From positions 5,086,001 to 5,150,000 of the forward strand of contig OZ076409.1 of assembly GCA_964187785.1 (NCBI GenBank): DNA of 64,000 nt. The letters are read 5' to 3'. This document shows, in pieces, positions 43,301 through 62,974 of the stretch; position 1 is the stretch's first letter; each line of letters starts with the position of its first letter. The position numbers and the translations under genes are program-made. Under the pieces are notes generated by a model. It was not told the DNA's origin. It saw only the letters and a program-made list of their open reading frames with translations, and made no database searches. Source of the stretch: Amphiscolops sp. MND2022 (lineage: Eukaryota).

Positions 43301-46300
43301 TGACGAAAAAAAACTAGCCACTGTAAGAGTCGGGATTTTCTTCGAAAACGCCGACTAAAAAACTAGCCACTGTAAGAGTCGGGCACTTTTCACTAGAAAA
43401 GCGCCGACTAAAAAAGGCTACTGCCCATTGGATTTAGAAAAACCAAAATGAAGTCAACGTCTCGAAAATATGTTCCAGAAAGGTTACAACTTGATGAAAA
43501 TATTCGATCCAATGGCGAAAAACTTGGATTATTTCTGTATCCGACAGTATCTGACAGCTTAGTTGGTGGGACGACGCTGGGAAGGTTTTTCTTTTCGGAA
43601 TATTTATGCGAAGTAAGTCTTTCTCACCAATACGTCTTCAATGGGGCCATACTTCTTGTTCTACTCCGAAGTTAATACAAACGTTCTATTTGTGACTTTA
43701 GTTTCAAAGTTTTCTGTAAACTCATCTTCCGTTCCAGGGTTTTTCGGGGTTCTATTTGGTTATCAGCTTAGGTCACAATTGATTCCTCAGGGCAGAGGCT
43801 CAAAAAGGTACAAAACCTCTTACGAAACAATATGCCGTAGTCAATATTACAAAGAACAAGCCGGGAACGGCATAAGTCGGTGAGATATCCAAGGCACAAA
43901 AATAGCAAAAAGACTTCCAAGTGTCAAGTATTTTCTTTTGCAGTTCTCGAAAATCGAAAAACCAAAAAAAATGGACCAAGTGGCGCGCCGGGGCCCGCTT
44001 GCGCGAGCCCCTGGCGCGCTAAAAGGATGACTCTTTCGAAATTGTCAACATTTTCGTCGCAGTTGTCGGGGGGACCCTTTGGAGAAATATCAAATTTTCG
44101 AAAAAAGTCTCACAATGCCGAAAAACTGAAAGGAGGGACCCTTTGGCGTTTTTCAACATCCATTCTGTCGCAAAACATCAAAAAATGGAAGGGGGGAAAT
44201 TTTTATTTTCGTAAAGTAAAAGTAAAGTTTTCCAGTTACGTTTGGGGAGTCTCCGTTTGGTGTTCGGAAAATAGCTATTATACTGCCTGCCCAGGGCGGG
44301 TAAATATCTTGACTTTATATCCGAATGTCACTGTAAGTGAAGATACGAAATTGAAAGCGTTCATTCAAAATGATACAAAAATTGAGGGCAGTTTCGTGGA
44401 CGTATGCAGCTAAATTGGTTTTTGCGTAGAGGCTTCCTTGAATTTTCCCAGAACAAAACAAGACGGGAACGTCTAAAGTCGGCGCTATATCTAAGGCTCA
44501 AAAAGCGCAAAAGACTTTTTAAAAAAAACTTGAAATTTTTGATTTTTTTCTTTCAGAAAATGTCGCATAGTGCCGAAAAATGTAAAAGGGGGGACCCTTT
44601 GTGCTTCATTAACATATATTCTGTTGCAAAATATCAAAAAACTCGAAAGGGGGACTCTTTTGAGACTTTAAAAAATTTTCGAAAAAACTCGCACAGTGCC
44701 GAAAAAAAATTGAAAGGGGAGACCCTTTAGTCTCTTCTGGTTTTGTAGGTTACGTAAAAAAAGTTAAAAATGAAAAGGGGGACCCTTTGGACTAAGTTTG
44801 CATTGGCCGGACTTGGCCTGAGTAGTCTGAGTAGTTTTATCAGTTTCTGTAAAAAGTGGTACATACGCGATGAGGTCTGTGGTCTGACGAAAAAAAAAGA
44901 AACAAGCCGGGAACGACCCAAGTCGGCGCCATATCTAAGGCTCAAAAAGACTCGAAAACCACTTTTTCTACAACTGGAAACAACAAAAGCTCTCAAAAAA
45001 CTAAAAATTGAGAAAAAAAATTTCCGAACTTTTTTTGAATTTTTTTTCGAAGTATCCGGTAAGTCTCATAGTGCCGAAAAATGTAAAAGGGGGGACGCTT
45101 TTTTACCTCATGTTGGACGCTTTGGATGCGTTGAAAATGAAATACTAAGTATATATGGTAAAATTGGTAAATGTGCATTAATTGCCTTAATGCACAAAAA
45201 GTGGACGTTACGCGTTGAACTGACGAAAAAAAACTAGCCACTGTAAGAGTCGGGATTTTCTTCGAAAACGCCGACTAAAAAAACTAGCCACTGTAAGAGT
45301 CGGGCACTTTTCACTAGAAAAGCGCCGACTAAAAAAGGCTACTGCCCATTGGATTTAGAAAAACCAAAATGAAGTCAACGTCTCGAAAATATGTTCCAGA
45401 AAGGTTACAACTTGATGAAAATATTCGATCCAATGGCGAAAAACTTGGATTATTTCTGTATCCGACAGTATCTGACAGCTTAGTTGGTGGGACGACGCTG
45501 GGAAGGTTTTTCTTTTCGGAATATTTATGCGAAGTAAGTCTTTCTCACCAATACGTCTTCAATGGGGCCATACTTCTTGTTCTACTCCGAAGTTAATACA
45601 AACGTTCTATTTGTGACTTTAGTTTCAAAGTTTTCTGTAAACTCATCTTCCGTTCCAGGGTTTTTCGGGGTTCTATTTGGTTATCAGCTTAGGTCACAAT
45701 TGATTCCTCAGGGCAGAGGCTCAAAAAGGTACAAAACCTCTTACGAAACAATATGCCGTAGTCAATATTACAAAGAACAAGCCGGGAACGGCATAAGTCG
45801 GTGAGATATCCAAGGCACAAAAATAGCAAAAAGACTTCCAAGTGTCAAGTATTTTCTTTTGCAGTTCTCGAAAATCGAAAAACCAAAAAAAATGGACCAA
45901 GTGGCGCGCCGGGGCCCGCTTGCGCGAGCCCCTGGCGCGCTAAAAGGATGACTCTTTCGAAATTGTCAACATTTTCGTCGCAGTTGTCGGGGGGACCCTT
46001 TGGAGAAATATCAAATTTTCGAAAAAAAGTCTCACAATGCCGAAAAACTGAAAGGAGGGACCCTTTGGCGTTTTTCAACATCCATTCTGTCGCAAAACAT
46101 CAAAAAATGGAAGGGGGAAATTTTTATTTTCGTAAAGTAAAAGTAAAGTTTACCAGTTACGTTTGGGGAGTCTCCGTTTGGTGTTCGGAAAATAGCTATT
46201 ATACTGCCTGCCCAGGGCGGGTAAATATCTTGACTTTATATCCGAATGTCACTGTAAGTGAAGATACGGAATTGAAAGCGTTCATTCAAAATGATACAAA

Positions 46301-48054
46301 AATTGAGGGCAGTTTCGTGGACGTATGCAGCTAAATTGGTTTTTGCGTAGAGGCTTCCTTGAATTTTCCCAGAACAAAACAAGACGGGAACGTCTAAAGT
46401 CGGCGCTATATCTAAGGCTCAAAAAGCGCAAAAGACTTTTAAAAAAAAACTTGAAATTTTTGATTTTTTTCTTTCAGAAAATGTCGCATAGTGCCGAAAA
46501 ATGTAAAAGGGGGGACCCTTTGTGCTTCATTAACATATATTCTGTTGCAAAATATCAAAAAACTCGAAAAGGGGACTCTTTTGAGACTTTAAAAAATTTT
46601 CGAAAAAACTCGCACAGTGCCGAAAAAAAATTGAAAGGGGAGACCCTTTAGTCTCTTCTGGTTTTGTAGGTTACGTAAAAAAAGTTAAAAATGAAAAGGG
46701 GGACCCTTTGGACTAAGTTTGCATTGGCCGGACTTGGCCTGAGTAGTCTGAGTAGTTTTATCAGTTTCTGTAAAAAGTGGTACATACGCGATGAGGTCTG
46801 TGGTCTGACGAAAAAAAAGAAACAAGCCGGGAACGACCCAAGTCGGCGCCATATCTAAGGCTCAAAAAGACTCGAAAACCACTTTTTCTACAACTGGAAA
46901 CAACAAAAGCTCTCAAAAAACTAAAAATTGAGAAAAAAAAATTCCGATTTTTTTTTATTTTTTTTTCGAAGTATCCGGTAAGTCGCATAGTGCCGAAAAA
47001 TGTAAAAGGGGGGACGCTTTTTTACCTCATGTTGGACGCTTTGGATGCGTTGAAAATGAAATACTAAGTATATATGGTAAAATTGGTAAATGTGCATTAA
47101 TTGCCTTAATGCACAAAAAGTGGACGTTACGCGTTGAACTGACGAAAAAAAAACTAGCCACTGTAAGAGTCGGGATTTTCTTCGAAAACGCCGACTAAAA
47201 AAAACTAGCCACTGTAAGAGTCGGGCACTTTTCACTAGAAAAGCGCCGACTAAAAAAGGCTACTGCCCATTGGATTTAGAAAAACCAAAATGAAGTCAAC
47301 GTCTCGAAAATATGTTCCAGAAAGGTTACAACTTGATGAAAATATTCGATCCAATGGCGAAAAACTTGGATTATTTCTGTATCCGACAGTATCTGACAGC
47401 TTAGTTGGTGGGACGACGCTGGGAAGGTTTTTCTTTTCGGAATATTTATGCGAAGTAAGTCTTTCTCACCAATACGTCTTCAATGGGGCCATACTTCTTG
47501 TTCTACTCCGAAGTTAATACAAACGTTCTATTTGTGACTTTAGTTTCAAAGTTTTCTGTAAACTCATCTTCCGTTCCAGGGTTTTTCGGGGTTCTATTTG
47601 GTTATCAGCTTAGGTTACAATTGATTCCTCAGGGCAGAGGCTCAAAAAGGTACAAAACCTCTTACGAAACAATATGCCGTAGTCAATATTACAAAGAACA
47701 AGCCGGGAAAGGCATAAGTCGGTGAGATATCCAAGGCACATAAATAGCAAAAGGACTTCCAAGTGTCAAGTATTTTCTTTTGCAGTTCTCGAAAATTGAA
47801 AAACCAAAAAAAATGGACCAAGTGGCGCGCCGGGGCCCGCTTGCGCGAGCTCCTGCCGCGCTAAAAGGATGACTCTTTCGAAATTATCAACATTTTCGTC
47901 GCAGTTGTCGGGGGGACCCTTTGGAGAAATATCAAATTTTCGAAAAAAAGTCTCACAATGCCGAAAAACTGAAAGGAGGGACCCTTTGGCGTTTTTCAAC
48001 ATCCATTCTGTCGCAAAACATCAAAAAATGGAAGGGGGGAAATTTTTATTCTCG
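40372..48054. repeat. Four-copy ~1920-bp tandem array, each unit with two nested family 1 HINEs and one truncated one
   Basis: Units start at 40372, 42294, 44213 and 46134. In unit 1, HINE 41064-41436 sits inside HINE 40618-41489. A third HINE from 41938 is cut by the junction and is complete only in the last unit (47699-48298). Confidence 0.93.
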
Positions 48055-49846
48055 AAAAAATATCTTACAATGCCGAAAAAATTGAAAGAGGGGACCCTTT
48101 GGTCTCGCCCGGTATGGTATGTTACGTGGAAAAACAGTAAAAACATTTTTGGTTCAGTGCGCTGGGCCAAATGGTGCAATTTTGTGCAATAATATTTCGT
48201 AGAACTTTTAAGAACTATTTTGGTCAGTTCGTGTGGATAAAAAAAAGAGTCACTATAATAGTCGCGTTTCACTTCATGAATTCATGAAGTGCCGACTAAA
48301 AAAACCGGGAACAGCCAAGTCTGCAGCCAGCTTAAGGTTCAAAAATCGAATTGTTTTAAAATGGCGAAGGGACACAATTGTGAATGTCGAAAACGTTCAA
48401 AAAAGTGCAGGGGGTACCTATGGACCACATTTTTTTTGAAAAAAGTTGCTTTTTGCCGGACAAAAACTCAGTGGGAGACTTTTTGATATCTTCTTAACTT
48501 TTACAAGCATTTTTGTTCCAATGCAGGATTTCGACCAAGGTAATGCTGATGCCCAGTCACGCACTTATGCATGAGGCCAATTGGCTAATGAGTTTGATTT
48601 CGCTGCCCTAGTTGAAACTGCAGAATTTTTTTACATGCTGCAGGCCTGCATGTAGGGTAAATTTTTATAGAAACTAGAAAATTCATTGAATTTCGTGTGG
48701 TAATCATGTACAATAACACTGCATTTTCCACTACTGTAACTAAATTTGAAAATAAATACCACTGTATTATCGACGCGATCACATTGTATTCACTTTGTTT
48801 TCTCAACTGCGCTGAACATGATGCTTATTTGCAGTTTATTACGCGACTGAAGTTTTATTGCATCAATTTAGCGGTAAACCTGATAGCAACTTATTTGCTT
48901 TCAAAATTATAACTGCTGCTTAATGAAACTTGCAATTTTTCAACCTTTAAAATTGCCGCCAAAACGTTGCTGAATCTTTGAAGCAGCTTGATAAAAATTA
49001 AATACAACTGGGAAATATTTCCGCATGAAAGTTTCCGTAGGAGTTTTAGAAAATCATATTAAAAGTTACTGGCAACAATAAAGTACATGCAAATAGTGCA
49101 AGCAGTTCCAACAAGGGTGGTCTCAGAAACAGCCACTACTAAAGTCCGTTGTCTACGAAAGCACCAACTCACCACGCGATAAGTTTCTACCGAAGGATCA
49201 GCTCTTGAATTACTTTTTAAAAAATTGTAGAATATTCTATTTATCTCTATTTTGACAATCTGAGGATTTGCCCAGAACGCCTTATATGCTATGACAAGAA
49301 AAAGACATAATGAACCGATCGCAAATTGGAAACGCTAGGAATAATCGAAAACTTCACAAACCGCTCCACGTCAGAGCAGAACGCCCAGCACAACAATTTT
49401 GAAGACCACTGAACGAAAACTTCAACCCGAAGCAAATTTGGAAACAGCTAATGTACGTACAAAGAAGATGCGACTTTTCGAAGTGGTAAAGAGCGAAATA
49501 ACTGAATTATGCAAAATGAACTCAGCTATGAAAAACAAAAACTGAAATACAAAAAATCGAAAAAAAAATTATTTAAAAAATACAGCGTGAAGACACATAT
49601 CGAAGACGAAACGAAACAAACAAACGGTCTGACGACATTGTTCGGAAAATGAAAATGAAATCACCAGCTTAACTCTTCACATTACGCAAACAATGGAAGC
49701 AAGGGTTTTCAATAAATAACTGATCAAAAAATAATTGCAATTAAATTATAACCAATAATTTATTTTTAGTATTCAAAATATATAATAATTGACATTCGGA
49801 TAACCGATTAATTGCAAGAATTGTGAGGTTAAACGAGCGTGCGCCA

Positions 49847-50081: not shown

Positions 50082-52924
50082 AGAAACATCGATTTTTTTC
50101 TTTCTCAAAGTGAATTTCACAACAAAACTACGAGGAGTCCGAAGGTGTACATCCTTGACCTTTTTTCGGCACTGTGAGACTAAAACGAATCAGACATAAT
50201 CTTTTGTAAAGATTTTGCTGATAAGTTTCTTTTTTTTCCAAGAAATCTTAATTTTTGTCAGACTCTTACCGTTACCGTTTTCAATGATGTTTTGTGAGTA
50301 AAATCGATGAAACTTTAGCGAGAACAATTCTTCAGAATATAATCAGTATAGGAAAGCAATATACTCTACTTATTCAGATTTTTCCTTATTCAAGTTCTCA
50401 CTCTATTTGAAATTTGATTCAATTTGAACCTGTTTTTGATTCTAGTCGAAAACATGTATTGGAATCTATCGGATTAGAGAGACAAAATTTATCAGGTTTG
50501 CTATAATTTCAAAACCTAATTATCTTATAAAATGTACAAATTTGGCACTGCATCGGTACACGTAACGAATACTCATTGCAAATCTACTGTGTGTTGTCAA
50601 AATCATCTAATCTAATAATAAATGACATATCACATTTCTCACTTACATATTTTATATACAATTTTTTCACTCTTGTAAAAAGATGACAATTCATTTCCGA
50701 CTTTTCACGTAACATCTTGTGTTTCACGGCATTTTCACAAATGTTGAGTTGTGAATTTCAAATATGGAAATATGCTCATACGCCATGAATGATTTTCACG
50801 TAGACTAAAAGCAACATGTAAGAATTTTAAATTGTACATGGACAATTTTGTATGATTTTTGCATGATACATACTTGCTTACGTAACAGATTGTCGGGATA
50901 AAAGGCCTCACAAAATGTTACCACGCGTGCCACGTCATTGTATCGTTTCATCATAATCTAATCTCTTTAGAGATAAAGACTTTATATAAATTATTCCAAG
51001 CAGTTAAATCATCTCGTTCGTTTTTGGTGGAAAATTAACTTTCATTAAAATTTATTTCAAAATTACACTTAAAAATGTTGATATCAAACGTTGCATCCTT
51101 GAGCTTGATTTACTTTTTGTCGGTAGCAGTTTTCCTTACCAATGCTGATGTCAAATTCCCCAAGGACCAAGGCATGAAACATCGGTGGCCGCCTTTAATT
51201 CTGAAACACGAAAGTGGAAGAATTCCCGACGGACATTTAAGGTAATACTTTAGGAAAACTTCGGGATACGGGACAAAATAGCCGATTTTCAAAACGAGAC
51301 ATAGCCGATTTTCAAAACGAGACATAATAGCCGATTTTGAATATAGGAAATTGAATAGGTAATGGGTTTTTGAAAAATTATTTTTATTGCTTCATCATTT
51401 ATCAAAAATAAACATTGTTGATTGATTGATGCATTGAAATGTAATTATTTAATTAAACTTGAGACAGAAAATGAAAGATATCCCATATCCGTAGTATCCG
51501 GAAATAAGACATCCCAGTGTTTACTCAATGTGGCATTTTCTTTCAACCCATTGCTGTTCTAATTTTGTAATTAGCATTCTCTTTGTACAAACAAATTCCT
51601 GAACACTTAGGCCTTTTACAGTTCAATAAACGCAAATCGCAGCGGCACTGCAACATTTCTTCTATCAGCTGAACAAGGTTTGTACGAACTGATAGACACA
51701 ACAAAATTGGCCTGAAAATACTAACAATTAACCACAAATTGAAATATAAAATTTTCAGTTCAGTCAATTTTTCAAACAATTATTAGGATAACCTTCAAAC
51801 GTGTAGAAAAATGCCAGTGCGAACTGATTGCCAAACGCAAAAACAAAAGCACCTTATCTTGGAAATTTGTGTTTCAGGACTCTTAATCATATTTTTAAAA
51901 CTTAAACACGAAGTCGGCCTTCGCTTTTTGATTTTTGTTTCGGTTTGGAAAAAGCGTTTTGCGGGCCTACACTGCATCTAATTTTTGGTGTTTCAGCACT
52001 AAGCGGTACCAATATTTTCTCACACGTTTGAGTTTTTTAAATGTATTCGGCCAGGAAAAGGCTGTTTTTGAGTCTGAATGGATTTTGAGTCCCTCCGAGT
52101 GTTTTTTGGCATTTTGAGATTGATGAGGAATACATCAGTCTTTTTCTTCTAGAATATATAAAGGTCTCTGCTAGTTTGAGTTCTGATCATGGCTCCAGCT
52201 TGGGTCGTTCCTGACTTGTTTTCAATATTTGATTTTGTGCGATAACTAATAAATTCAGTTGGACGGGGAGATTCAAGAAAATATTGCTGCTCTCACAGAA
52301 CCAAATCTGCTTTCATTCGGAGTTTGTAGCATTTACCTACCTAGTTTTTTTACACAGTCTTTCTTTCTAAAATATTTGAAAATTTTTTCTTCTGTTTGAG
52401 ATTGAAGTTTTGAAGTTATTGTCTCTCTTCTGAAATCCAGATAGTCATTAGGATGAGAAGCGCTTTATCATCGTCGGAAAACTTTAGCTAAATGTTGCAG
52501 CTAGGTCCCAAATTCTGAGAACTTTGAAAAGCTTCCGTGTTCCGGCCCTTACTTTTCTTTTGATCAGTTGTTTCATTTTGTTTTTGTTGACTTGAAAAAT
52601 TCCAGAAAATTCGCCGAAATTATTAGAAATGTCAAGTATTAGAAGTTGCAGAAATCTAAAGCCCAATAATTTCCCCAGGTTGTCTGTCATGGCCTGTTCA
52701 TGGAAAATCATCCATGATCATGGATTTTTCGACGCATTACTTCTACTTTCATGGAAAATCATGGATGGCCCATGGCAGGGCATGGCCCCATGCATCATCA
52801 TCCATGATTTTGACCCATGATTCATCCATGTTGAGCCATGATGAAAATTTCGTTCAACGAAAATTTTCTTCTACCACCGTGTCAGTTTTTGTCTCTGGTT
52901 CTTTCTCTTTATTCTGAGGGTTAC

Positions 52925-54847
52925 TGTAGAAATTTTAGTTTTTGGCGTCTACAAAAAAATGCATTGCGTTTGCGCGAAGTACATATGACAAATTGAACTG
53001 TGTTAATCACGTTTTTAGACCGTCGGAAAAATGACAATAACTAAAAAGGCTGACAATAGCGTGCTTCGATATGGCTTATTTGGCAAACTAGACTTTTATA
53101 AAGTAAACGAAACTTAATAGGCGAAATTAACGAGCTAGTGAGATACGCCGATGATGAATTTGTCCGAATTAACTAAGTTAGAATCGACCGCTTCGAGCAA
53201 AATTTACTAAGTTTTTATTTTGGGCAAAAACAAGAGGTATGTAAAAAAACACCACCCCCCCCCCGTCCCGGCGAACTACTGAACCGATCCCGCTGAAAAT
53301 TGGCACACGTATACCTGAGCTGTTATGCTACTTGTCCATAAAAAGGGAACCGAGCCGAGACCCCCCAGTCCCGGGCTATTAGCACCGGAAGTGACCTAGG
53401 TCGACCCCCCTATGATCTCGTCGGCCAATCACGGGATAAATCAGATTTTGTATGGAATTGATAGCCCATAGGATATTAGGCCGTTTGCGCATATTTTTGG
53501 AACCCTACGACGCGTGTAGGAGGAGCACGGACCCTAAGTAAATAAACCCCGAACGTCATGTAAATCGCCAACGGATGACCCAAAGATCATGAAACTTACC
53601 CAAGATGTTCACCTAGTAACCCCAAGTAATATACATGAAAGATACATTGATCGATCCACCACGCGCGGAGTAATGTTTGTTTAAGGCACGCGGGACCGGA
53701 CGCGCGGGCCCGACCGATAATAGACCTCGACCTTGGCTTGTAATATCTCAAACGAATTGGGATAACGAATGTAGTTGACTGCTATTGTGAACGGAACAGT
53801 ATTTGTAACCCACGTGGGGGTAACCGCCTTAAGTAAACAAACGATATGCACATCACGTAACTCGAAGACCATTGACCCTAGGACGATATAACTTGGCATG
53901 TAGCAACTTTAGATGAAGACAGATGACTTCAAGGTCACCGATGGACCTCAAGGCCATTCTAGATGTAACCCCGGAGCAGATAGGAAAACGTACATTAAAA
54001 CATGTAAATCAGCGTCTTTAAGCGATAATTTATGCATTTCAGTCAGGCGGATCGATTCGCGATGTATTGTACCTAGGATGATGGAAAAGTAACCCTCACA
54101 CGTAGAGAGCATGAAAACCATGTAACTCAAGGTCATTAAACGATTGTCTCGATATTAGAAATATCTCGGGTGACTTGAATTATTATTGAAATGTGAACTT
54201 TGTACAACCTTTGTTGAAGTATTTGTCGTTGGCGGCGAAGTATGTCTGGCCGAAACATAACTAGAGAGCTGCCATGCCATAAAAGGAATGGAACTACATG
54301 AAGTTAAAAGCATGCAAATAAAAGAGCGACGTCGGTACAATAAAAATGCGGCTGATGGATAAATATCTCAGGGAGGGAAAAAGAGACTGAATTGAGACAG
54401 AAGAACGACTACGAAGTCAAGAGTAAGTTGAGCCGTGTGCGGGCAAGAAACCTACTCGAGATCGAATTTGACTTAACTGCTTAGCGAGAGCAGAGAATTA
54501 GTTACAAGTCCGGGACTTGGAAATCTTTTGAGTGAAACGTGATTCTGGCACAGTCTTGTCGAGTTATTTTATATAATTCATTCACCTGCTGTGCTATTGT
54601 TATTTGATTGAGAGTTCATATACTGTGGAAATCTTCGACTTGTATTATCCAGATAATTCCTGAATTAGAGTATTAATTGCAAGTAACTTTTCCATAGTGT
54701 TTTTTGGAGTCGAAACTTGAGCACTGGAGAGACTTTGTGAAAAGAGTACGCGATACGTGAACGAAACTTACTCACCAAAAACAAAACCTTTCTGTTAGAA
54801 TCGAGCCATTGGGATCTCTCTCCAACCCACTAGCAAAAATTTCTACA
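52925..54847 (+). repeat. 5' LTR (1923 bp)
   Basis: TGTAGAAATTTT...AAAATTTCTACA, nearly identical to 59507-61427. Confidence 0.96.
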
Positions 54848-54848
54848 G

Positions 54849-54865
54849 TGGCGCTCCTGGGTGGG
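54849..54865 (+). promoter_or_regulatory. Primer-binding site, probably for tRNA-Asn
   Basis: TGGCGCTCCTGGGTGGG lies one base after the LTR. Its complement CCCACCCAGGAGCG-CCA resembles animal tRNA-Asn(GTT) 3' ends (from memory). Confidence 0.75.
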
Positions 54866-55054
54866 CAATTTTCGTAGTTCTGTATCGCTGTTATTTTGGA
54901 ATTGTTTTACTGGGACTTAACTGTAATCCCTTCACGACGCGATCAAAACAAGCACATTATCCGATGAGGTTGATCGACTGAGAACGTCCTTGTACAACAG
55001 AACAGAGACGTTTCTCTATTGCAACTAGTTGGTGCCTGAAGTAACGCCGTGGGT

Positions 55055-57550
55055 ATGGAAGACGAACAGCGACTTGCAATAATGGAGGCTGTCGCCCAAG
55101 GGGTGATACAGGGCCTCAACGGGAATGAGAATCGGCTGTTTGGCAATGGAGCAATCAGACCTGACAGCTTCCCCTCGCAGAACTATCCAGATTGGTCCCA
55201 ATGGAAAACGCACTTTTACAGAGTTGGCAGAGCCAACGGATGGACTGAGTTGCAAGGTCTGCAAGCTGTGCCTGTGTGCTTGATTGGGTACGCATTGGAC
55301 GAGTACAACGCTGCGCCTCGAGAACTGAGAGAGCAAGTGGATGGGGAAGATGCACCTACGTTAGCTGCACTATTCAATTACCTGGGTAGAGAAATGGGGA
55401 TGATGCGAAATGACCGTCTGGGGAAAGCAGAATTTAGAAAACTTCGACAGCAACCGGAGGAAACCCTGAGGGAATTTGCCCGACGAGTGAGAAACATTGG
55501 AAAAATTGCCTACTCAGAGAAGGACCCCAACACCAGAGACGAGTTGTTCCGCGAGAAGTTCCTCGAGGGTTTGAGCGATGTACAACTGGAAGTTCAGTTG
55601 TTGAAAGAAAACCCACAAACATTTGGGGATCTAGTGAACAGGGCTGTTGACTTGGAAGTTATTGCTCGAACAACACGTGGCCGTTCACAGGATGAACAAG
55701 AGCGGTACGAAGAGCTTGGAAGGCAGCAAGACTCATGTCGTGACATCCGTGGTTATTCAGACGAACCGTGGAAAGAAGGGTTACAACAGCTCACTAGAAG
55801 AATGGACGAGATGACGCAGATGATGATGACTTTCATGGAAACTCTGTCAACAACTGTGAGACCTGAGAAGCAGGCTGGGATGACAGACCCACCCAAACGT
55901 GAGGCCACCCCTGTGGCGACCGAACGAAAATTCAAGGAAAATGGCGGTTTTGTAGCCGATATCTGCCCTATTTGCGATGGTTTTGGACATTTTCCCCAGC
56001 AATGCCCCAAACGGCAGGTGGTGGTCGAAGAAGCTCCAGATGTGCATGGGAAGTTGACAAGAGAGAAAGCTGCACAAATTGTTGAGAGGGCCGGCTTACC
56101 AATTGAAAGAAAGGCGCTGAACGCTGTGCGTGTGGTAGACTGTTCTGGTTGTAACAGCGGGGTTTTCGTGAAAGCCCGAATCGAGGGAAGAGAGATGGAC
56201 ATTTTGTTGGACACGGGAGCTGGCGTGAACGTGGTGGACTCAAGTACAATGGAATTGCTTAGACCCCCTGATGAGGTCAAAGAATTTCGTGGAGAGTTGC
56301 GGTCTGTAGACGGTCAACCAGTGACGACTGAAGGAATAACCCGACTGAATTTGCAGCTGGGACCCTTGAAGGAGCAAGAAGAATTTGTGGTGGTTCCCCA
56401 CTGCGAGCCATCCGTTATTCTAGGCTTGAACTTCGTGAAAAAGCATAGAATGATTTTTGACTTTGGGAAAGACGAACTGTCCATACCTCCTCTGTCCTCA
56501 GAACCGCTGAAAATGAGAGTTGTTGCATCGCAATGGGGCGAAGAAAGGGGAAGTTGTTACCCGCGGAGCACCAGTGACAGCCATGAAAGCGCGGAGACTG
56601 AACCTCCTTGGTCGGCATCCTCCACTCAGCACTTGAGCGCTCCCGAGAGCAGGAATTCAAGATGGGATTCCGGAGAGAAACCGCCACCAAGGCGTTGGGA
56701 CGCAATGATAGTCGACACAGATGCTGATTTCCGCATGGTATCGACAACAGAGTCTAAGTACAGGAGTGATCGCAGCAGAAGCTCCATCATTACTACCCTG
56801 AAACCTCGACAGACTACACTTTTTGGCGATGATGACGTCGACGTTGAACGCGGGAACCTGAAGTACAAAGAGATCGAGGGAGACCTATTTTCGTCCAAAG
56901 GTTGTTTGGCTCACTGTGTTTCGGCAGATTTCCACATGGGGGTCGGAGTTGCCAAGCAAGTCAAAACGAGGTGTCCCACTACTTATCCAAAGGATGTCAA
57001 CCACAAGAGACAGCCAGTTTTTGCGCAGTGGATTGAAGGAGAACGTCGTTACGTGTATCACTTGGTCACCAAACAACGATACTTCGAGAAACCGACCTAC
57101 GAATCCGTGAAAACGTCGCTGCAACAGATGAGAACTCACGCGGAGTGGTCTGGGGTCCACAGAATAAGCCTGCCGAGGATTGGCTGTGGGTTGGATCAAC
57201 TGAGTTGGAGTGAAATGAGGAGTCTAATTAAAGACGTTTTCAAGGGGAGTCACGTAGCAATTACAGTGTATGTAGCCCCTCAGCAGAACTCGCCGCTCAA
57301 TTGCGAGATTGACGTTGAAGACGTTGGAAGCAGAAGGGGAGAACGCCCTTCGCCGACACCTTCCAGCTCGGAGTACATTGACGACTGGTTCGACAGGAAC
57401 CAACAATCAGAACTGGGAAAGTTCAAGGAGCGAGGGTTGCGGTCTCTCCGGCACAAGAGGTGCGAGAATGCAGGATTGTGGTCAGTCAAACGCGGAGCGG
57501 CTCAGCCGGATGCCACTGGACCGTACAAACGTGAGAAGATGATGGCTTAA
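55055..57550 (+). CDS. 831-aa Gag / CCHC knuckle / retropepsin / TARG1(OARD1)-like macrodomain polyprotein
   Basis: Capsid-like QQPEETLREFARRV...FLEGL, CPICDGFGHFPQQC (55964-56005), LLDTGAGVNV (56210) and ILGLNF. Macrodomain 56858-57274: EGDLF, LAHCVSADFHMGVGVA, YHLVTKQRYFEKPTY, LPRIGCGLDQLSW, ITVY. Confidence 0.92.
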   Translation: MEDEQRLAIMEAVAQGVIQGLNGNENRLFGNGAIRPDSFPSQNYPDWSQWKTHFYRVGRANGWTELQGLQAVPVCLIGYALDEYNAAPRELREQVDGEDAPTLAALFNYLGREMGMMRNDRLGKAEFRKLRQQPEETLREFARRVRNIGKIAYSEKDPNTRDELFREKFLEGLSDVQLEVQLLKENPQTFGDLVNRAVDLEVIARTTRGRSQDEQERYEELGRQQDSCRDIRGYSDEPWKEGLQQLTRRMDEMTQMMMTFMETLSTTVRPEKQAGMTDPPKREATPVATERKFKENGGFVADICPICDGFGHFPQQCPKRQVVVEEAPDVHGKLTREKAAQIVERAGLPIERKALNAVRVVDCSGCNSGVFVKARIEGREMDILLDTGAGVNVVDSSTMELLRPPDEVKEFRGELRSVDGQPVTTEGITRLNLQLGPLKEQEEFVVVPHCEPSVILGLNFVKKHRMIFDFGKDELSIPPLSSEPLKMRVVASQWGEERGSCYPRSTSDSHESAETEPPWSASSTQHLSAPESRNSRWDSGEKPPPRRWDAMIVDTDADFRMVSTTESKYRSDRSRSSIITTLKPRQTTLFGDDDVDVERGNLKYKEIEGDLFSSKGCLAHCVSADFHMGVGVAKQVKTRCPTTYPKDVNHKRQPVFAQWIEGERRYVYHLVTKQRYFEKPTYESVKTSLQQMRTHAEWSGVHRISLPRIGCGLDQLSWSEMRSLIKDVFKGSHVAITVYVAPQQNSPLNCEIDVEDVGSRRGERPSPTPSSSEYIDDWFDRNQQSELGKFKERGLRSLRHKRCENAGLWSVKRGAAQPDATGPYKREKMMA

Positions 57551-58356
57551 AGAACAACTATCACTTCGGGAGATTGACGTGTCTTTGGTTAGATGTATTT
57601 GACCCGAAACTTCGATTCGGCTTGACGACTTTACGAAACATAGTGAAACTTTCCTTAATCTTACGATTTTTTTGTTTTTGTTTTTTTATGAATCAGGTAA
57701 CGCGCCACCCGTGAACACCTAAAACCCCCCTGTGACATTGTTTCGAAGCGAGCAGAAGGGAAGAAAGGATTTTGAATTAGCAGTGCTAGGTATCAGAATT
57801 TGGGGTATTACTAAAACAACGGCGCCTCGAAACAATGTCACCCCCCCAAGGCTCAAGGCATGTTCTTGCGTATAATTTTCACGACCCAACGAGACCTGTT
57901 CCTGAGGATCCCCCCTTCCAAAGAAAGTATGTCTCTTCGACGAATTATGTCCCATGCCCCATGTTTTAATCGCCCTGAGATACTCTTCTATCAAAGCGGT
58001 GTCCCGCCTTGACTATATATATATATTTTTTTATCTACGATCAATCGACCTCCCCTCCCTAAAATGACTACCCCGAGTTAATGATGCGGTGCAAAATCAG
58101 CGTTTTGTACCTAGTGATGAATCGTAGCCCCCAGATTTGCTTTGATATAGTTTTGTGCAGTATTTTTTTTGTTACATTCTTTGACCCCTGCACCCTTTTC
58201 TTTAAAGGGGGCCTAGAAGACTCGACCGAACCCTGAATCGTAATCGTTCGTAAGCATTAAAGGGGACTTTCTCAAATTAGAGGGAGAGCTATGAATACTG
58301 TATTTCAATTTTAACGAAGGAAGTCGATGATGACAGATGATGTTTATACGGATGAA

Positions 58357-58659
58357 TTAAAGTAAGAAATGTGGAGGGGTTGGCTCCCGCAGAGCACCCC
58401 AGAGTTTTTGGCGGGCAATGAGGAGACGAAGTTTTTGCACTCCCACCAGACCAATCTCCGATGTGGCGAGGTTCCTCAGGAAGATGACGAATTCTACCCA
58501 ACCAGGGCTAAGGTAGTCCAGACATAACGCGCCCAATTCGCCCTCCACGGTCAGCTGGACCTCGTGATGCTCTGCAATTTCCATACGGGTGATCTCGAAC
58601 ACCACGCGGAAGTACTGAGACTCCCAAACCAAGTTCAGTAAGAAAGGGCCTTGTGCCAT
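58357..58659 (-). CDS. Orphan 100-aa antisense ORF inside the LTR element
   Basis: ATG in a GCAACAACATGG-like context, uninterrupted, richer in GC than its flanks. No domain recognised. Confidence 0.35.
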   Translation of the reverse strand: MAQGPFLLNLVWESQYFRVVFEITRMEIAEHHEVQLTVEGELGALCLDYLSPGWVEFVIFLRNLATSEIGLVGVQKLRLLIARQKLWGALREPTPPHFLL

Positions 58660-58885
58660 GTTGTTGGTTACAGCGACGAGTTACGATTTTGAATGTTACA
58701 AAACTCCTTTTTACTGTCGACTCAGTGGATACAGGATGTCCAGATGTTTTCTAGATAAACAAAAGCTAGCGCTTCGATATGAAGGGAAAATTGCCCAACT
58801 TAGTGGTATCGGTACGTTGAGTGGGTAAAAGTTGACGGATTTCGCAAAGTAAATTTGCCGAGTAAACAAAGGCCTGAACGGCGAA

Positions 58886-59200
58886 ATGTTCACAACACAA
58901 AACTTTCGATCTTTTTGGCGAGCAGTAGAAAAATTCGCATTTTATGAGATGACGTATTTTGGCTTATATTGGACCTGGGACTGCCCAGACTTCGAAGAGG
59001 TGGTGTTGTTAGAGAGGATCTTCTTTGACTTCGGGGAGGCACCCATGATCGCCCACATCCATTGTTCTGACCGGCCTCGAAGGCGAAATGTGGAAGTCCA
59101 TCCAGGGACCCGAAGGTGGACCAGCTTGTTGGCCACGCTTAGAGAAATTTTTCTGTACGCAGGAAATCTTCACCGCGAGCATCGGCTGCAGGTCGGGTAA
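58886..59200 (+). CDS. Orphan 104-aa sense ORF inside the LTR element
   Basis: ATG-initiated, uninterrupted, aromatic-rich, richer in GC than its flanks. No domain recognised. Confidence 0.35.
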   Translation: MFTTQNFRSFWRAVEKFAFYEMTYFGLYWTWDCPDFEEVVLLERIFFDFGEAPMIAHIHCSDRPRRRNVEVHPGTRRWTSLLATLREIFLYAGNLHREHRLQVG

Positions 59201-59494
59201 TTAATTAATTTTATGTCAAACTCCAGGAAAGTGCGGGAATAACTCGTTTCATATAGCGTCCCTCTTTTATACCCGTATATAAATCTCATCTTTCATTAGA
59301 TCTTTCAATTTCATTCTATTAGTTTAGTTTCAAATGCTTTAAATTGTCTGTTATATAGATATTATTTTTTTAAATTGATGTTTGAATACCTAATCCCCGC
59401 CCTATATCTATACTGTATTGTTTTTTTTTAAACCCAGATCCCACGATTCAGCCAACGACAATACCGTTAAGTTTATTCGGGAGAATAAAAGTCC

Positions 59495-59506
59495 AGAAGG
59501 GAAGAG
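59495..59506 (+). promoter_or_regulatory. Polypurine tract
   Basis: AGAAGGGAAGAG immediately before the 3' LTR. Confidence 0.9.
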
Positions 59507-61427
59507 TGTAGAAATTTTAGTTTTTGGCGTCTACAAAAAAATGCATTGCGTTTGCGCGAAGTACATATGACAAATTGAACTGTGTTAATCACGTTTTTAG
59601 ACCGTCGGAAAAATGACAATAACTAAAAAGGCTGACAATAGCGTGCTTCGATATGGCTTATTTGGCAAACTAGACTTTTATAAAGTAAACGAAACTTAAT
59701 AGGCGAAATTAACGAGCTAGTGAGATACGCCGATGATGAATTTGTCCGAATTAACTAAGTTAGAATCGACCGCTTCGAGCAAAATTTACTAAGTTTTTAT
59801 TTTGGGCAAAAACAAGAGGTATGTAAAAAAACACCACCCCCCCCGTCCCGGCGAACTACTGAACCGATCCCGCTGAAAATTGGCACACGTATACCTGAGC
59901 TGTTATGCTACTTGTCCATAAAAAGGGATCCGAGCCGAGACCCCCCAGTCCCGGGCTATTAGCACCGGAAGTGACCTAGGTCGACCCCCCTATGATCTCG
60001 TCGGCCAATCACGGGATAAATCAGATTTTGTATGGAATTGATAGCCCATAGGATATTAGGCCGTTTGCGCATATTTTTGGAACCCTACGACGCGTGTAGG
60101 AGGAGCACGGACCCTAAGTAAATAAACCCCGAACGTCATGTAAATCGCCAACGGATGACCCAAAGATCATGAAACTTACCCAAGATGTTCACCTAGTAAC
60201 CATAAGTAATATACATGAAAGATACATTGATCGATCCACCACGCGCGGAGTAATGTTTGTTTAAGGCACGCGGGACCGGACGCGCGGGCCCGACCGATAA
60301 TAGACCTCGACCTTGGCTTGTAATATCTCAAACGAATTGGGATAACGAATGTAGTTGACTGCTATTGTGAACGGAACAGTATTTGTAACCCACGCGGGGG
60401 TAACCGCCTTAAGTAAACAAACGATATGCACATCACGTAACTCGAAGACCATTGACCCTAGGACGATATAACTTGGCATGTAGCAACTTTAGATGAAGAC
60501 AGATGACTTCAAGGTCACCGATGGACCTCAAGGCCATTCTAGATGTAACCCCGGAGCAGATAGGAAAACGTACATTAAAACATGTAAATCAGCGTCTTTA
60601 AGCGATAATTTATGCATTTCAGTCAGGCGGATCGATTCGCGATGTATTGTACCTAGGATGATGGAAAAGTAACCCTCACACGTAGAGAGTATGAAAACCA
60701 TGTAACTCAAGGTCATTAAACGATTGTCTCGATATTAGAAATATCTCGGGTGACTTGAATTATTATTGAAATGTGAACTTTGTACAACCTTTGTTGAAGT
60801 ATTTGTCGTTGGCGGCGAAGTATGTCTGGCCGAAACATAACTAGAGAGCTGCCATGCCATAAAAGGAATGGAACTACATGAAGTTAAAAGCATGCAAATA
60901 AAAGAGCGACGTCGGTACAATAAAAATGCGGCTGATGGATAAATATCTCAGGGAGGGAAAAAGAGACTGAATTGAGACAGAAGAACGATTACGAAGTCAA
61001 GAGTAAGTTGAGCCGTGTGCGGGCAAGAAACCTACTCGAGATCGAATTTGACTTAACTGCTTAGCGAGAGCAGAGAATTAGTTACAAGTCCGGGACTTGG
61101 AAATCTTTTGAGTGAAACGTGATTCTGGCACAGTCTTGTCGAGTTATTTTATATAATTCATTCACCTGCTGTGCTATTGTTATTTGATTGAGAGTTCATA
61201 TACTGTGGAAATCTTCGACTTGTATTATCCAGATAATTCCTGAATTAGAGTATTAATTGCAAGTAACTTTTCCATAGTGTTTTTTGGAGTCGAAACTTGA
61301 GCACTGGAGAGACTTTGTGAAAAGAGTACGCGATACGTGAACGAAACTTACTCACCAAAAACAAAACCTTTCTGTTAGAATCGAGCCATTGGGATCTCTC
61401 TCCAACCCACTAGCAAAAATTTCTACA
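59507..61427 (+). repeat. 3' LTR (1921 bp)
   Basis: About 6 substitutions and one 2-bp poly-C indel relative to the 5' LTR, by visual comparison. Confidence 0.96.
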
Positions 61428-62974
61428 GTTACCTTAATGGCCCGGGTAGCATTAAGAGCGCTTTTCGGCACCGCGTATCCTGAAGCCGCGAGATAGGTAA
61501 GATTTTAGTAAGCATTAGGTTTTTGATGGCTTTCGACGGAATTGCGGAAAAACGCGTCTTTTCAGATCAATTTTAAAGAAAATTTAGAAATATTCTAGCT
61601 TGTATTTAGATCAATGCCTCGTCCGATTTGGAACTGAATTTTGATCAAAATGGCGCAATAATCTTTTGAGAAATTTGTTGCCTTAAAAATTGACAACACG
61701 CTTGTACAGTTGTGTCGATGAATGAATGGAGCCTATGATTTGTTATGCGAGTGTTGCAAAATACGATACATGAAAAGTTTTAAGAGTTTTTGTCTGTATT
61801 ATATTTCTCTTTCTGTGAATTTGTATCACCGAAATGAGCCAAGTTGGCAAAAAAAACATTTTTGACGTTCGGTTTCAATGCCTAAATTAGCAGCAAGAGT
61901 GAGTCACTGTTTTTCTATGATATTGCTAAAATTGCCAATTTGTGATTGATATCCCTCGAAAATTTTGATCGTCACGTGGCTTAGATTCAGAAAGAAGTTC
62001 GTTTTCAAAGAAAAATCAGTATTCTCAAAATCGTGTTCTATTCTCAATCTTAATACATTAACTGAGAATGTTCGTATGAAGATTGCCGATTTCCTTCAGA
62101 CGCGTGAAAACTAAAGGCCTCAAAGTTTGCTTGAGCAATCAATAGACACAGATGGGTTGGAAGATAATGAAAAAAAAAACAAATCGAAATTGTTTCTGAA
62201 GGACATAAAAATGAAAACTAATATCCGAAACGACAAATCAACTTCATTCACAAAACTGTTATTGTCCACCATCACAAACTCATTTGTGTAGAGGGAGAAA
62301 AATTACCATCGGAGTTGTGTTTTTTTTTCCAAATTCTGCCAAAAGTTCACTCAGTGATAAAATCCATTAAGTTATTAAGTTACTTGAGTAAAATGGGTAA
62401 TTTAGTCACAATTGGCTGTGATTTCGAATCCTAACTGGAGCGTGAACTTTTTTCTACTTTCCCAGACCGACAAACTTTTTGCTTATTTGAGTAGTGTGGC
62501 GGACTTTCGAGCCTCGCCTTTGCCATTAAATTTAAAAAACTTTCCTCTGAGACCTCATTAAATAGCTGGGAGCCTGTAATTACACGTTCATGTATGAAAG
62601 TGTTTTCGAAAGCTCGAATGATAGCTTATACTTCATTTGGTTCATTTTGAACAGTTTTATTACACTTCTTTTCTGTATGGAAACAATTCAATCTTCTATT
62701 TCAATTCAAGGCCTGCAGGTTGCAACTATCAATCATTATTTCATTTTTTAAAACCTACTCGTCCAGTGTTGACCTTCCATGGATATTTTACACTCTTGTT
62801 TGTAGCAACCGAACCAACACGTAGTTCGTACATGCAAAATGCAAAAGTGAACGCTCGATTTGCGCGCTAATTAAACACCTGCCAAAAAACGTTGACAAAT
62901 ATTTCATTAGCAATGTTTATTACCTTTCAAACTCTTAGTCTTAGAATTCACGTATTCTGAAAGCATTGAAATTA

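Follow-up and report, generated by a model that had tools for sequence, protein, structure and literature searches.

The window analysed here, a stretch of 64,000 nucleotides from Amphiscolops sp. MND2022, contains at positions 52925-61427 a complete LTR retrotransposon of 8503 bp (~8.5 kb) in which one ORF joins Gag and an aspartic protease (PR) to a TARG1/OARD1-class macrodomain. We consider it probable that this is a satellite Gypsy element which makes a Gag-PR-macrodomain polyprotein and is mobilised by a 12.7-kb helper, whose cis signals the satellite carries. A satellite equipped with a macrodomain enzyme hints that ADP-ribose marks matter in the conflict between hosts and LTR elements.

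Anatomy of the element and its copies

The initial annotation had described a complete LTR element with an uninterrupted 831-aa capsid-CCHC-protease-linker-macrodomain ORF. The TSD, both LTRs, the PBS, the PPT and the ORF were all found as it gave them, and are as follows.

52920..52924, + strand: left TSD GTTAC, 5 bp, read in the sequence; the same bases follow the 3' LTR
52925..54847, + strand: 5' LTR, 1923 bp, TGTAG...CTACA, from blastn against the 3' LTR
54848..54915, + strand: first 68 nt after the LTR (spacer, PBS and 49 nt of leader), identical in the 12.7-kb partner
54849..54866, + strand: PBS TGGCGCTCCTGGGTGGGC, read in the sequence; a single G separates it from the LTR
55055..57550, + strand: ORF, 831 aa, Gag-PR-linker-macrodomain-tail, uninterrupted from ATG to stop
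55055..56044, + strand: Gag part, aa 1-330, by homology to the partner's Gag and a weak Retrotrans_gag match
55964..56005, + strand: CCHC knuckle CPICDGFGHFPQQC, aa 304-317, CX2CX4HX4C in the translation
56168..56434, + strand: retropepsin-type aspartic protease, aa 372-460, LLDTGAG, by Pfam and the DTG in the translation
56495..56839, + strand: linker, aa 481-595, rich in Ser, Arg and Pro, with no Pfam match
56840..57289, + strand: TARG1/OARD1-class macrodomain, aa 596-745, by phmmer, AF2 model and Foldseek
57290..57550, + strand: C-terminal tail, aa 746-831, and stop; dN/dS near neutral
57551..59449, + strand: non-coding 3' internal region, differing between copies; no Pfam match at cut-off and no tblastn match
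59450..59506, + strand: 57 nt preceding the 3' LTR, PPT included, common to the partner
59495..59506, + strand: PPT AGAAGGGAAGAG, read in the sequence
59507..61427, + strand: 3' LTR, 1921 bp, from blastn against the 5' LTR
61428..61432, + strand: right TSD GTTAC, read in the sequence

The two LTRs are 99.58% identical by blastn (6 mismatches and 1 gap over 1925 aligned columns) and have TG...CA ends. The protease domain was matched by two Pfam families (Asp_protease_2, E 5.9e-10; gag-asp_proteas, E 2.1e-8), and the end of the linker has low AF2 confidence. The absence of RT, RNase H (RH) and integrase (IN) from the rest of the internal region, also claimed from the first reading, held up in a Pfam scan and in tblastn of 54848-59506. 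The interval 57400-59506 holds 35 segments that run for 40 aa or more without a stop, and the 26 of these scanned gave no match at cut-off to any Pfam family. Additionally, a tblastn search of 54848-59506 with proteins from this genome's autonomous elements (two pol, three env) gave a best E of 0.3 outside Gag, PR and the macrodomain.

Among the Ty3/Gypsy criteria, TG...CA LTRs, a short TSD, a PBS and a PPT are all present in the window element, and the pol order PR-RT-RH-IN is absent, PR being its sole part present. We placed the element in the Ty3/Gypsy superfamily because its Gag, PR and LTR are homologous to those of a PR-RT-RH-IN element. A third ORF for an F-type env, the errantivirus-like criterion, was not found in the window element by the Pfam segments or by tblastn.

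The RT-less layout recurs in the genome with different TSDs, a point that the initial annotation had set out for checking. It is carried at ~113 genomic places (macrodomain match of at least 65% identity), and in 49 of the 111 full family rows (hand count) the frame stays open, with no stop, for 815 codons or more. An ORF of 830-840 aa is kept at 10 of 20 loci. The three copies checked have the TSDs GTTAC (window), CATTG (C12) and CCTGC (C3). A search with the internal region gave at least 33 scored places, and no added coding sequence at any of them. Most copies differ in the 3' internal region, where query positions 3817-4578 are swapped for another stretch of ~0.8 kb, and ~143 bp are missing from the internal region of some. 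Two copies of old subfamilies (L056 and L057) were read over 2.7 kb each. The family is thus a successful, many-copy, non-autonomous one, of which the window element is one young copy.

Class, constraint and origin of the macrodomain

Searched with phmmer against PDB chains, the macrodomain matched human TARG1/OARD1 at E 3.4e-29, with ~45% identity over the aligned region; the next class was Thermus DarG at E 2.5e-5. The Pfam Macro profile (PF01661) scored 17.9 bits (E 0.0031), under its curated gathering cut-off of 22 bits, as did other Gypsy macrodomains (L051 pol, 17.3 bits; P0029, 17.9 bits). P0018 (23.2 bits) and P0023 (22.8 bits) narrowly pass, with single stretches that cover about half of the profile. 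An AF2 model of aa 585-760 had a mean pLDDT of 88.3, and in a Foldseek search of the PDB with this model ranks 1-8 were all TARG1 (TM on target 0.79-0.87). The best of these was 4j5s (E 1.4e-14, TM 0.86 on target), and the next class was DarG, with 5m31 (E 1.4e-10).

K673 (57071-57073) and D714 (57194-57196) correspond to the catalytic residues of TARG1, K84 and D125 in human numbering, and align to its ITK and GCGLD. Both are invariant in 18/18 intact copies and kept in two older subfamilies, and 16 of the 21 other macrodomain motif positions checked are likewise invariant in all 18. Sequence comparison and the predicted fold thus confirm what the initial annotation had read from motifs: a TARG1/DarG-class domain, specifically of the TARG1/OARD1 class, with catalytic Lys at 57071 and catalytic Asp at 57194 retained.

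Pooled over 153 pairs from 18 intact copies, dN/dS was 0.25 for the macrodomain, 0.24 for PR, 0.31 for gag, 0.49 for the linker and 0.79 for the tail; these values come from open-frame copies only, and the pairs are non-independent. Across comparisons the ranges were 0.24-0.31 for gag, 0.17-0.25 for PR, 0.37-0.49 for the linker and 0.16-0.27 for the macrodomain. Between deep subfamilies the macrodomain gave 0.16-0.27 (Fisher p 6e-6 to 3e-14), so that it does not evolve neutrally; neutral evolution would, by the initial annotation, have counted against its reading. Judged by these ratios, the macrodomain is under purifying selection as strong as that on the protease. Upstream of the tail, the linker is the part under the weakest constraint. 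The tail itself, at 0.79 pooled and 0.96 median, is therefore close to neutral, and in one older subfamily it is swapped for unrelated sequence.

In a tree of 163 macrodomain rows, the satellite domain lies inside a 27-row clade (SH-aLRT 95). Its companions are three Gypsy pol proteins with the order RH-macrodomain-IN and fragments with RNase H or integrase zinc-finger domains. Other Gypsy families in the same genome hold a macrodomain between RNase H and integrase, and one is found in at least 12 rows from other families within frames that stay open for 1400 codons or more. Among public proteins, several architectures of Gypsy pol include a TARG1-type macrodomain. The satellite macrodomain is 45-47% identical to the Gypsy pol macrodomains, and its likeness to L052 pol continues ~35 aa upstream of the domain. 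Cellular relatives of the macrodomain clade are fusions to enzymes such as PNKP, DNA ligase, UDG, XPG and TatD. Because it clusters with Gypsy pol macrodomains, the domain was inherited or recombined from a retroelement and not freshly captured from the host; on the evidence of the tree, it came from a retroelement lineage. The initial annotation's caveat that it may derive from an autonomous Gypsy parent was right in substance, as the clade of Gypsy pol macrodomains shows, but the actual LTR-sharing partner has no macrodomain.

A likely helper, the proposed mechanism and its alternatives

The initial annotation had looked to an autonomous partner sharing LTR ends and PBS. Such a partner is present in the same genome, with a common PPT region as well: a 12.7-kb env-bearing Ty3/Gypsy element with gag, PR-RT-RH-IN and an F-type env. 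For one copy the whole sequence was read: its gag, pol and env are 340, 1420 and 745 aa long, its LTR pair is 99.85% alike and its TSD is GGGTC. The other 1420-codon rows were assigned to this element by two features only, identical scores and the PBS junction. In the fully read copy, pol, with its order PR-RT-RH-IN, lacks a macrodomain, and env has a furin-like site and a hydrophobic fusion peptide, as in the macrodomain-bearing relatives. The Baculo_F matches in the partner and in L051/L052, at 21.1 and 23.0 bits, fall under the cut-off of 24.1 bits.

The partner LTR is 85.5-85.8% identical to that of the window element overall and 92% identical in the last ~850 bp, and the start variants TGTAG and TGTGG are common to satellite copies and partner. 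Beyond the LTR the blastn alignment reaches element position 2022 (window 54946), and the 68 identical nt are a candidate packaging or dimerisation signal. At the other end, 2 mismatches separate the two elements over the 57 nt that lead up to the 3' LTR. A genome-wide count of the 19-nt CA-G-PBS junction, allowing no more than 2 mismatches, gave 807 occurrences, as compared with one for a reversed control. In protein, the two elements are 40% identical in Gag (331 aa, E 9e-80) and 31% in PR. The nearest non-family proteases (31-35% identity) sit in 1420-codon frames (10 rows), and among the matches listed, 6 of the 7 in such frames have the CA-G-PBS junction ~1.26 kb upstream. Taken together, these sequence features make the 12.7-kb element the likely helper of the satellite family.

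In the mechanism that we propose, the satellite would yield a single Gag-PR-macrodomain polyprotein without RT, RNase H or integrase, and the helper's enzymes would copy and insert it in trans, as the common LTRs, PBS, leader start and PPT suggest. The common leader would admit satellite RNA to particles holding helper Pol; the satellite polyprotein would join those particles, bringing the macrodomain in at Gag level, and the satellite protease may free it. As a mono-ADP-ribosyl hydrolase, the domain would remove ADP-ribose added by host transferases from element proteins or from cDNA or DNA ends, which could improve the odds of finished reverse transcription and integration. Such a hydrolase role would probably be one of counter-defence. 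Particle building by the satellite's own Gag, release of the domain by the protease and counter-defence were all put forward in the initial annotation, and here too we purely infer them. With just 40% identity between the two Gag proteins, it is uncertain whether the satellite's would co-assemble with the partner's Gag-Pol. If the partner's Gag packages satellite RNA via the common leader, the reason for the lasting constraint on the satellite's own Gag and PR is not obvious. A more far-reaching version, which we hold only tentatively and think rather unlikely, is that ADP-ribosylation of retroelement proteins or cDNA is a host defence in this lineage, against which Gypsy elements repeatedly gained TARG1/DarG-type erasers. 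The satellite would then be the eraser half of a two-part retroelement, supplying at Gag-level dosage an enzyme that the helper lacks, and the substrate would be nucleic acid (thymidine- or end-phosphate-linked ADP-ribose on cDNA) and not protein.

It is unlikely that the macrodomain is instead a reader of ADP-ribose, binding mono- or poly-ADP-ribosylated chromatin or PARP-marked breaks and tethering the particle or pre-integration complex in the way of a chromodomain. Autonomous relatives do place the macrodomain right before integrase, the usual spot of a targeting module, the cellular relatives are fused to DNA-repair enzymes, and purifying selection suits binding as well as catalysis. However, the invariant and long-kept catalytic Lys and Asp would be superfluous in a pure reader, and the satellite has no integrase to tether. 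Mutual dependence, with the helper supplying RT-RH-IN and Env and the satellite supplying the macrodomain, we regard as quite unlikely. The lack of a macrodomain in the helper pol, when other families have one in long frames, would fit such an arrangement, as would the LTR pairs (99.6% in the satellite, 99.85% in the helper), which indicate that both were recently active, and the common LTR start variants, expected under co-packaging and template switching. Yet plain parasitism accounts for the same facts, and the 10 helper rows with open 1420-codon frames give no sign of dependence on the satellite.

That a defective element recently took up the host's own OARD1/TARG1 gene by transduction is very improbable. 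In its favour, identity to TARG1, judged from the human protein, is similar to that with the Gypsy pol macrodomains. Against this, the identifiable members of the clade are Gypsy pol proteins and fragments, the domain does not group with the stand-alone proteins of ~140-200 aa in the tree, the likeness to L052 pol extends beyond the domain, and within-family macrodomain dS of up to 0.78 implies long residence in the element. The idea that the layout arose by deletion in a single copy or by an assembly error, its ORF being open by chance, is almost certainly wrong: nothing in its favour was found, and it is ruled out by recurrence at ~113 places, 49 of them with the frame open, by TSDs that differ among three copies and by a dN/dS far under 1.

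Relation to known elements and macrodomains

Non-autonomous LTR elements that share LTRs, PBS and PPT with an autonomous family include ETn/MusD in mouse, Dasheng/RIRE2 in rice and BARE2/BARE1 in barley; ETn and Dasheng encode nothing, and BARE2 has no working Gag. Similar to these, the satellite lacks RT and IN, is multi-copy with its own TSDs and carries cis signals matching a complete element of the same genome. Unlike ETn, Dasheng and BARE2, it retains a constrained Gag-PR, well diverged from the partner's (40% and 31% identity), and has an extra enzyme domain missing from the partner. An accessory enzyme for nucleic-acid hygiene has a parallel in the retroviral dUTPase, which lies between RNase H and integrase in non-primate lentiviruses and in the Gag-Pro frame of betaretroviruses. 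The macrodomain occupies the same two sites, RH-IN in the autonomous relatives and the Gag-PR frame in the satellite, but it is a different enzyme with different chemistry, and dUTPase-bearing viruses are autonomous.

TARG1/OARD1 (PDB 4J5Q/4J5R/4J5S, 2EEE, 2L8R) is the best match in sequence and fold among solved structures, with Lys and Asp equivalents present; it is a stand-alone cellular protein of ~150 aa, whereas in the satellite the domain is C-terminal within a retroelement polyprotein. The DarG macrodomain (PDB 5M31, 5M3E, 5M3I, 7OMU) is the second-best structural class. DarG is bacterial, paired with the DarT toxin and ~24% identical to the satellite domain; no DarT-like partner gene was found in the element, which has no second gene and no Pfam match at cut-off in the segments scanned. 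DarG acts on ssDNA, where it strips ADP-ribose off thymidine, and such chemistry is of relevance to a cDNA intermediate. Among positive-strand RNA viruses, the macrodomains of coronavirus nsp3 (Mac1) and alphavirus nsP3 are ADP-ribosyl hydrolases thought to counter host PARPs and, like the satellite domain, lie inside a polyprotein. These RNA-virus domains are MacroD-type, appearing in the Foldseek list only from rank 23, with 12-17% identity to the satellite domain.

TR-GAG elements, as described in the available part of PMC4350172, are plant non-autonomous LTR elements of <4 kb with a single ORF encoding Gag. The satellite likewise retains Gag in its single ORF, but at 8503 bp, with 1.9-kb LTRs and an ORF that adds protease and macrodomain to Gag, it falls outside that description. 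The helper and the macrodomain-bearing relatives resemble the env-carrying, errantivirus-like metazoan Ty3/Gypsy elements of PMC13524379 in having gag, pol and F-type env; the satellite has no env. The words 'macro', 'ADP-ribos' and 'non-autonomous' are absent from the text of that paper. Teleost epsilon-like endogenous retroviruses carry macro-domain ORFs (Basta et al. 2009, via the available part of PMC4977317) and thus, like the satellite, are retroelements equipped with an accessory macro domain. The fish elements, compared here by description, belong to the vertebrate Retroviridae and have additional ORFs; in the present Ty3/Gypsy elements the domain is in frame, in pol (relatives) or in a Gag-PR fusion (satellite). 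Macro domains in retroelements are thus already known, both from these fish retroviruses (PMC4977317) and from Gypsy pol architectures in public proteins.

Structure and copy number of the satellite element

The initial annotation described a young LTR retrotransposon in which a single uninterrupted frame encodes capsid, a CCHC knuckle, aspartic protease, linker and a macrodomain, with reverse transcriptase (RT), RNase H (RH) and integrase (IN) missing. Each part of that structure was recovered, and we refer to the element as the satellite.

Features of the satellite copy in the window
52925–61427: complete LTR element (LTRs, target-site duplication, primer-binding site, purine tract, ORF)
Both ends of the element: LTR pair of 1923 and 1921 bp, starting TGTAG and ending CTACA, with 6 mismatches and one gap over 1925 columns
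Either side of the element: 5-bp target-site duplication (TSD) GTTAC, read from the sequence
One base past the 5' LTR: 18-nt primer-binding site (PBS) TGGCGCTCCTGGGTGGGC
Directly adjoining the 3' LTR: purine tract AGAAGGGAAGAG
55055–57550: sole long ORF, 831 aa, encoding Gag, aspartic protease (PR), linker, macrodomain and an 86-aa tail, in that order

The Gag portion of the ORF carries a CX2CX4HX4C knuckle, the protease occupies aa 372–460 (Pfam Asp_protease_2, E 5.9e-10) and the linker that separates it from the macrodomain is rich in Ser, Arg and Pro. The rest of the internal region (1.9 kb) holds no coding signal. The stretch 57400–59506 contains 35 stop-free segments that reach 40 aa or more, and the 26 that were scanned gave no Pfam match at the cut-off. 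Similarly, tblastn with the Gag, Pol and Env proteins of three autonomous elements from this genome matched only Gag, PR and the macrodomain, with everything else at E 0.3 or worse, in agreement with the claimed absence of RT, RNase H and integrase. An antisense ORF of 149 aa within the gag-PR region (55753–56202, minus strand) is probably a chance frame.

We searched the genome (1.07 Gb, 1929 contigs) with several queries. With internal-region DNA, at least 33 scored places among 554 candidates were collinear with the query without exception, and none contained added coding sequence. A search with the macrodomain protein, in which the best 150 of 977 candidates were scored, returned 111 full rows and two partial places at 65–100% identity, or at least about 113 places by hand count. 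Among those best 150, 49 of the 111 satellite-family rows have a stop-free frame of 815 codons or more (hand count), and an ORF of 830–840 aa is kept at 10 of the 20 loci fetched first. The layout recurs with different TSDs, since two other copies with ends that were read have their own, CATTG (contig C12) and CCTGC (contig C3). The number of places, the open frames and the differing TSDs led us to reject a one-off accident. Older subfamilies at ~80% protein identity encode ORFs of 838–839 aa with the same layout (2.7 kb read of each). In public protein sets, a word-indexed search found the satellite architecture in just 17 clusters, all of them ENA records, at 62–93% identity among proteins of similar length, and one pol of 1563 aa among longer ones. 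An ESM Atlas search with the whole 831-aa ORF gave generic Gag/PR clusters only (best score 0.82).

Four pairs of satellite copies lie on the same strand 6.4–7.9 kb apart (C7:34907253/34913870, C2:29052453/29060363, C5:30715672/30722054 and C7:20259246/20265870). Two copies of the helper element described below lie 12.1 kb apart (C1:40660557/40672675). These spacings fit tandem LTR-internal-LTR-internal-LTR arrays formed through unequal recombination. Additionally, two loci of the older subfamilies have mosaic relationships: measured against the window copy, macrodomain dS comes to 0.34 in L056 and 0.78 in L057, whose tail is unrelated. This pattern suggests recombination among satellite subfamilies.

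Class and constraint of the macrodomain

The macrodomain had been assigned to the TARG1/DarG type on the basis of its motifs. The Pfam Macro profile matches it below the cut-off (17.9 vs 22 bits). With phmmer against all PDB chains, human TARG1/OARD1 matched across the whole domain at E 3.4e-29 and Thermus DarG at 2.5e-5. We built an AlphaFold2 model of aa 585–760 from a 56-sequence alignment (mean pLDDT 88.3), and Foldseek placed eight TARG1 chains on top (E 1.4e-14, TM 0.79–0.87 on target) with DarG next (E 1.4e-10), which upholds the assignment. In contrast, RNA-virus macrodomains appear from rank 23 downward, at 12–17% identity.

K673 and D714 align with the TK and GLD motifs of TARG1, and we take them to be the equivalents of its catalytic Lys84 and Asp125. 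Both residues, together with 16 of 21 other checked motif positions, are invariant in all 18 intact family copies; thus the catalytic Lys and Asp are retained, as claimed. The other five positions vary among these copies, for example position 709 (12 M, 6 I). In the older loci, the conserved LAHC His is Gln (L056) and the GCGLD Cys is Tyr (L057).

To measure constraint on each segment, we used 18 of 50 loci that were unique and open across aa 90–831; the other 32 were duplicate places or contained stops or frameshifts and were dropped. Values are pooled Nei-Gojobori estimates over 153 pairs, which share history.

Pooled dN/dS among 18 open satellite copies
Gag: 0.31
Protease: 0.24
Linker: 0.49
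Macrodomain: 0.25
Tail: 0.79 (median of pairs 0.96)

Among these open copies, constraint on the macrodomain equals that on the protease and the tail alone appears neutral. The macrodomain was also non-neutral when the window copy was compared with two old subfamilies, giving dN/dS of 0.16–0.27 at macrodomain dS of 0.34–0.78 and a deficit of non-synonymous changes with Fisher p of 6e-6 to 3e-14.

A probable helper element with matching cis signals

The closest proteases outside the satellite family are 31–35% identical and belong to long open frames, of 1420 codons in ten rows, 1416 in two and 1407 in one. The 19-nt junction formed by the LTR end CA, one G and the PBS was counted 807 times genome-wide when up to two mismatches were allowed, against one occurrence of the reversed control, and it sits ~1.26 kb upstream of 6 of 7 such protease matches (among the matches listed, contig C1 to the first part of C3). 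One copy was fetched (C1:14669001–14682100), and it is the autonomous partner sharing LTR ends and PBS that the initial annotation had called for. This probable helper is a 12.7-kb Ty3/Gypsy element with LTRs 99.85% alike and the TSD GGGTC. It encodes a 340-aa Gag, a 1420-aa Pol in a frame other than gag (PR-RT-RH-IN, macrodomain absent) and a 745-aa Env. The Env has a signal peptide and a membrane span at the C terminus, a hydrophobic stretch follows its RDRR site, and its Baculo_F match falls under the cut-off.

Similarity of the helper to the window element
LTR, whole length: 85.5–85.8% (nt)
LTR, last ~850 bp: 92% (nt)
68 nt past the LTR (spacer, PBS and 49 nt of leader): identical
57 nt ahead of the 3' LTR: 2 mismatches
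Gag: 40% (aa), E 9e-80
PR: 31% (aa)

One satellite copy begins TGTGGAATTTTTAG, as the helper does, and the window copy begins TGTAGAAATTTTAG. LTRs normally diverge faster than coding sequence, and the reversal of that order here means that the satellite's cis signals were taken from, or kept in step with, the helper family.

We also considered and rejected as helper the type represented by L051 and L052, two autonomous Gypsy elements of the same genome with a macrodomain inside pol. These have no LTR or leader similarity to the satellite and a different sequence at the PBS position, and their Gag is 30% identical across just 97 aa.

Pairs of a non-autonomous LTR element and its matching helper are classical, as in ETn/MusD, Dasheng/RIRE2 and BARE2/BARE1. 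The satellite-helper relation found here is unusual in that cis signals are nearly common to both while Gag is merely 40% identical, which bears on how non-autonomous elements track their helpers. Gag-only TR-GAG elements are described from plants (PMC4350172), and a review (PMC4977317) cites fish epsilon-like retroviruses with macro-domain ORFs. Env-bearing Gypsy elements occur across metazoans (PMC13524379); the text of that paper contains no occurrence of 'macro', 'ADP-ribos' or 'non-autonomous'. A full-text literature search, with most subscription journals outside its coverage, found no paper on macrodomains or DarG-type enzymes in Ty3/Gypsy elements.

Descent and predicted role of the macrodomain

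A second class of macrodomains in the genome, at 42–50% identity, accounts for 36 of the 150 rows scored (the best 150 of 977), and 12 of these 36 have frames of 1400 codons or more. L051 and L052 are elements of this class with gag, pol and F-type env; their Pol proteins (1646 and 1592 aa) are ordered PR-RT-RH-macro-IN, and relative to helper Pol the macrodomain and its linkers form a ~250-aa insert between RNase H and integrase. One genome holds the macrodomain in two settings, as this insert in autonomous env-bearing elements and as the Gag-PR fusion of the satellite.

An exhaustive phmmer search against 1.84 billion representatives gave 3521 matches at E ≤0.001. We scanned 27 proteins with Pfam, 22 from among the matches listed (longer ones and close relatives) and five from earlier searches. 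The pol layouts seen included RT-RH-macro-IN (P0167, P0018 and the truncated P0068), RT-RH-IN-macro (P0071 and P0083) and RT-RH-IN-macro-Tpt1 (P0142). The last, a 1651-aa Gypsy pol from a public metagenome, carries after its integrase a TARG1-type macrodomain (aa 1168–1322) and then a Tpt1/KptA RNA 2'-phosphotransferase (aa 1353–1513), so that a single retroelement protein holds both an eraser and an enzyme of the ADP-ribosyl-transfer kind. Among the cluster labels looked up, one was that of a bacterial MAG and another read transposase/deacetylase. Cellular-looking proteins (P0050, P0056, P0061, P0103, P0162 and P0091) fuse the same macrodomain class to PNK 3'-phosphatase (PNKP), ATP-dependent DNA ligase, uracil-DNA glycosylase, XPG/FEN-type nuclease, TatD DNase or NADAR, and these fusions point to a possible nucleic-acid-linked role for the class.

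We ran a quick IQ-TREE analysis on 163 macrodomain rows, and in the resulting tree the satellite family (SH-aLRT 99) falls inside a 27-row clade (SH-aLRT 95) with L051, L052 and P0018. That clade includes fragments bearing RNase H or an integrase zinc finger (P0023, P0148 and P0029) and four short rows with no other recognisable domain. The remaining Gypsy pol macrodomains are scattered, and supported branches require at least two origins. Because it is nested with Gypsy pol macrodomains, the satellite macrodomain is judged from this phylogeny to be of retroelement descent. The caveat that it may have been inherited from an autonomous Gypsy parent holds to that extent, but the helper that shares the LTRs has no macrodomain. 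The route may have been either a lost PR-RT-RH-macro-IN parent reduced by two deletions or recombination with such an element.

Since the satellite has the PBS, purine tract and LTR ends of the helper, helper Pol would reverse-transcribe and integrate satellite RNA, and the identical leader suggests a packaging signal common to both. Gag-PR-macro would be translated as a single chain, so that every Gag molecule would bear protease and macrodomain; the helper would need a gag-pol frameshift. Release of the macrodomain from the polyprotein is suggested because the protease is constrained and the linker only loosely so. RNA viruses are known to use macrodomains as counter-defence enzymes, and ADP-ribosylation of DNA is reversed by enzymes of the DarG type. 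The TARG1/DarG class, the cellular DNA-end-processing fusions and the one retroelement relative with Tpt1 lead us to predict that the satellite domain removes mono-ADP-ribose from acidic residues or nucleic acid. The position of the macrodomain in autonomous relatives, adjoining integrase, is the site of the dUTPase that some retroviruses carry next to integrase. We favour a role in which the domain would shield the replication intermediate, or its proteins, against ADP-ribosylation by the host.

The main rival to this shielding role is that the macrodomain serves as an ADP-ribose reader or tether. The boldest reading the data allow is that satellite and helper form a mutualistic two-part element. 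The satellite dropped all other pol functions, yet selection on its macrodomain is as strong as on its protease, good comparative evidence that ADP-ribose removal matters for retroelement replication. With 150 aa and two known catalytic residues, the domain offers a compact system for asking if retroelements are restricted by ADP-ribosyltransferases of the host, and through which substrate.

Other features of the window
~140–6220: repeats spaced about 2.74 and 3.05 kb apart
1155–1667 and 3896–4408, minus strand: twin 170-codon frames, one with a sub-threshold SET-domain match
26535–31144, minus strand: LINE (non-LTR retrotransposon) with a 1235-codon frame (Exo_endo_phos endonuclease, RVT_1, RNase H)
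~40340–48200: tandem array of at least four units of 1918–1922 bp, 98–100% alike

The period of the tandem array equals the LTR length (1.92 kb), but the two have no blastn similarity and we regard the match as coincidence; the 180–190-aa ORFs of the array have no Pfam match. The LINE coincides with a block in which AT skew is strong (−0.24 to −0.30), and upstream of its 1235-codon frame lies a 314-codon frame with a C1/zinc-finger-like match.
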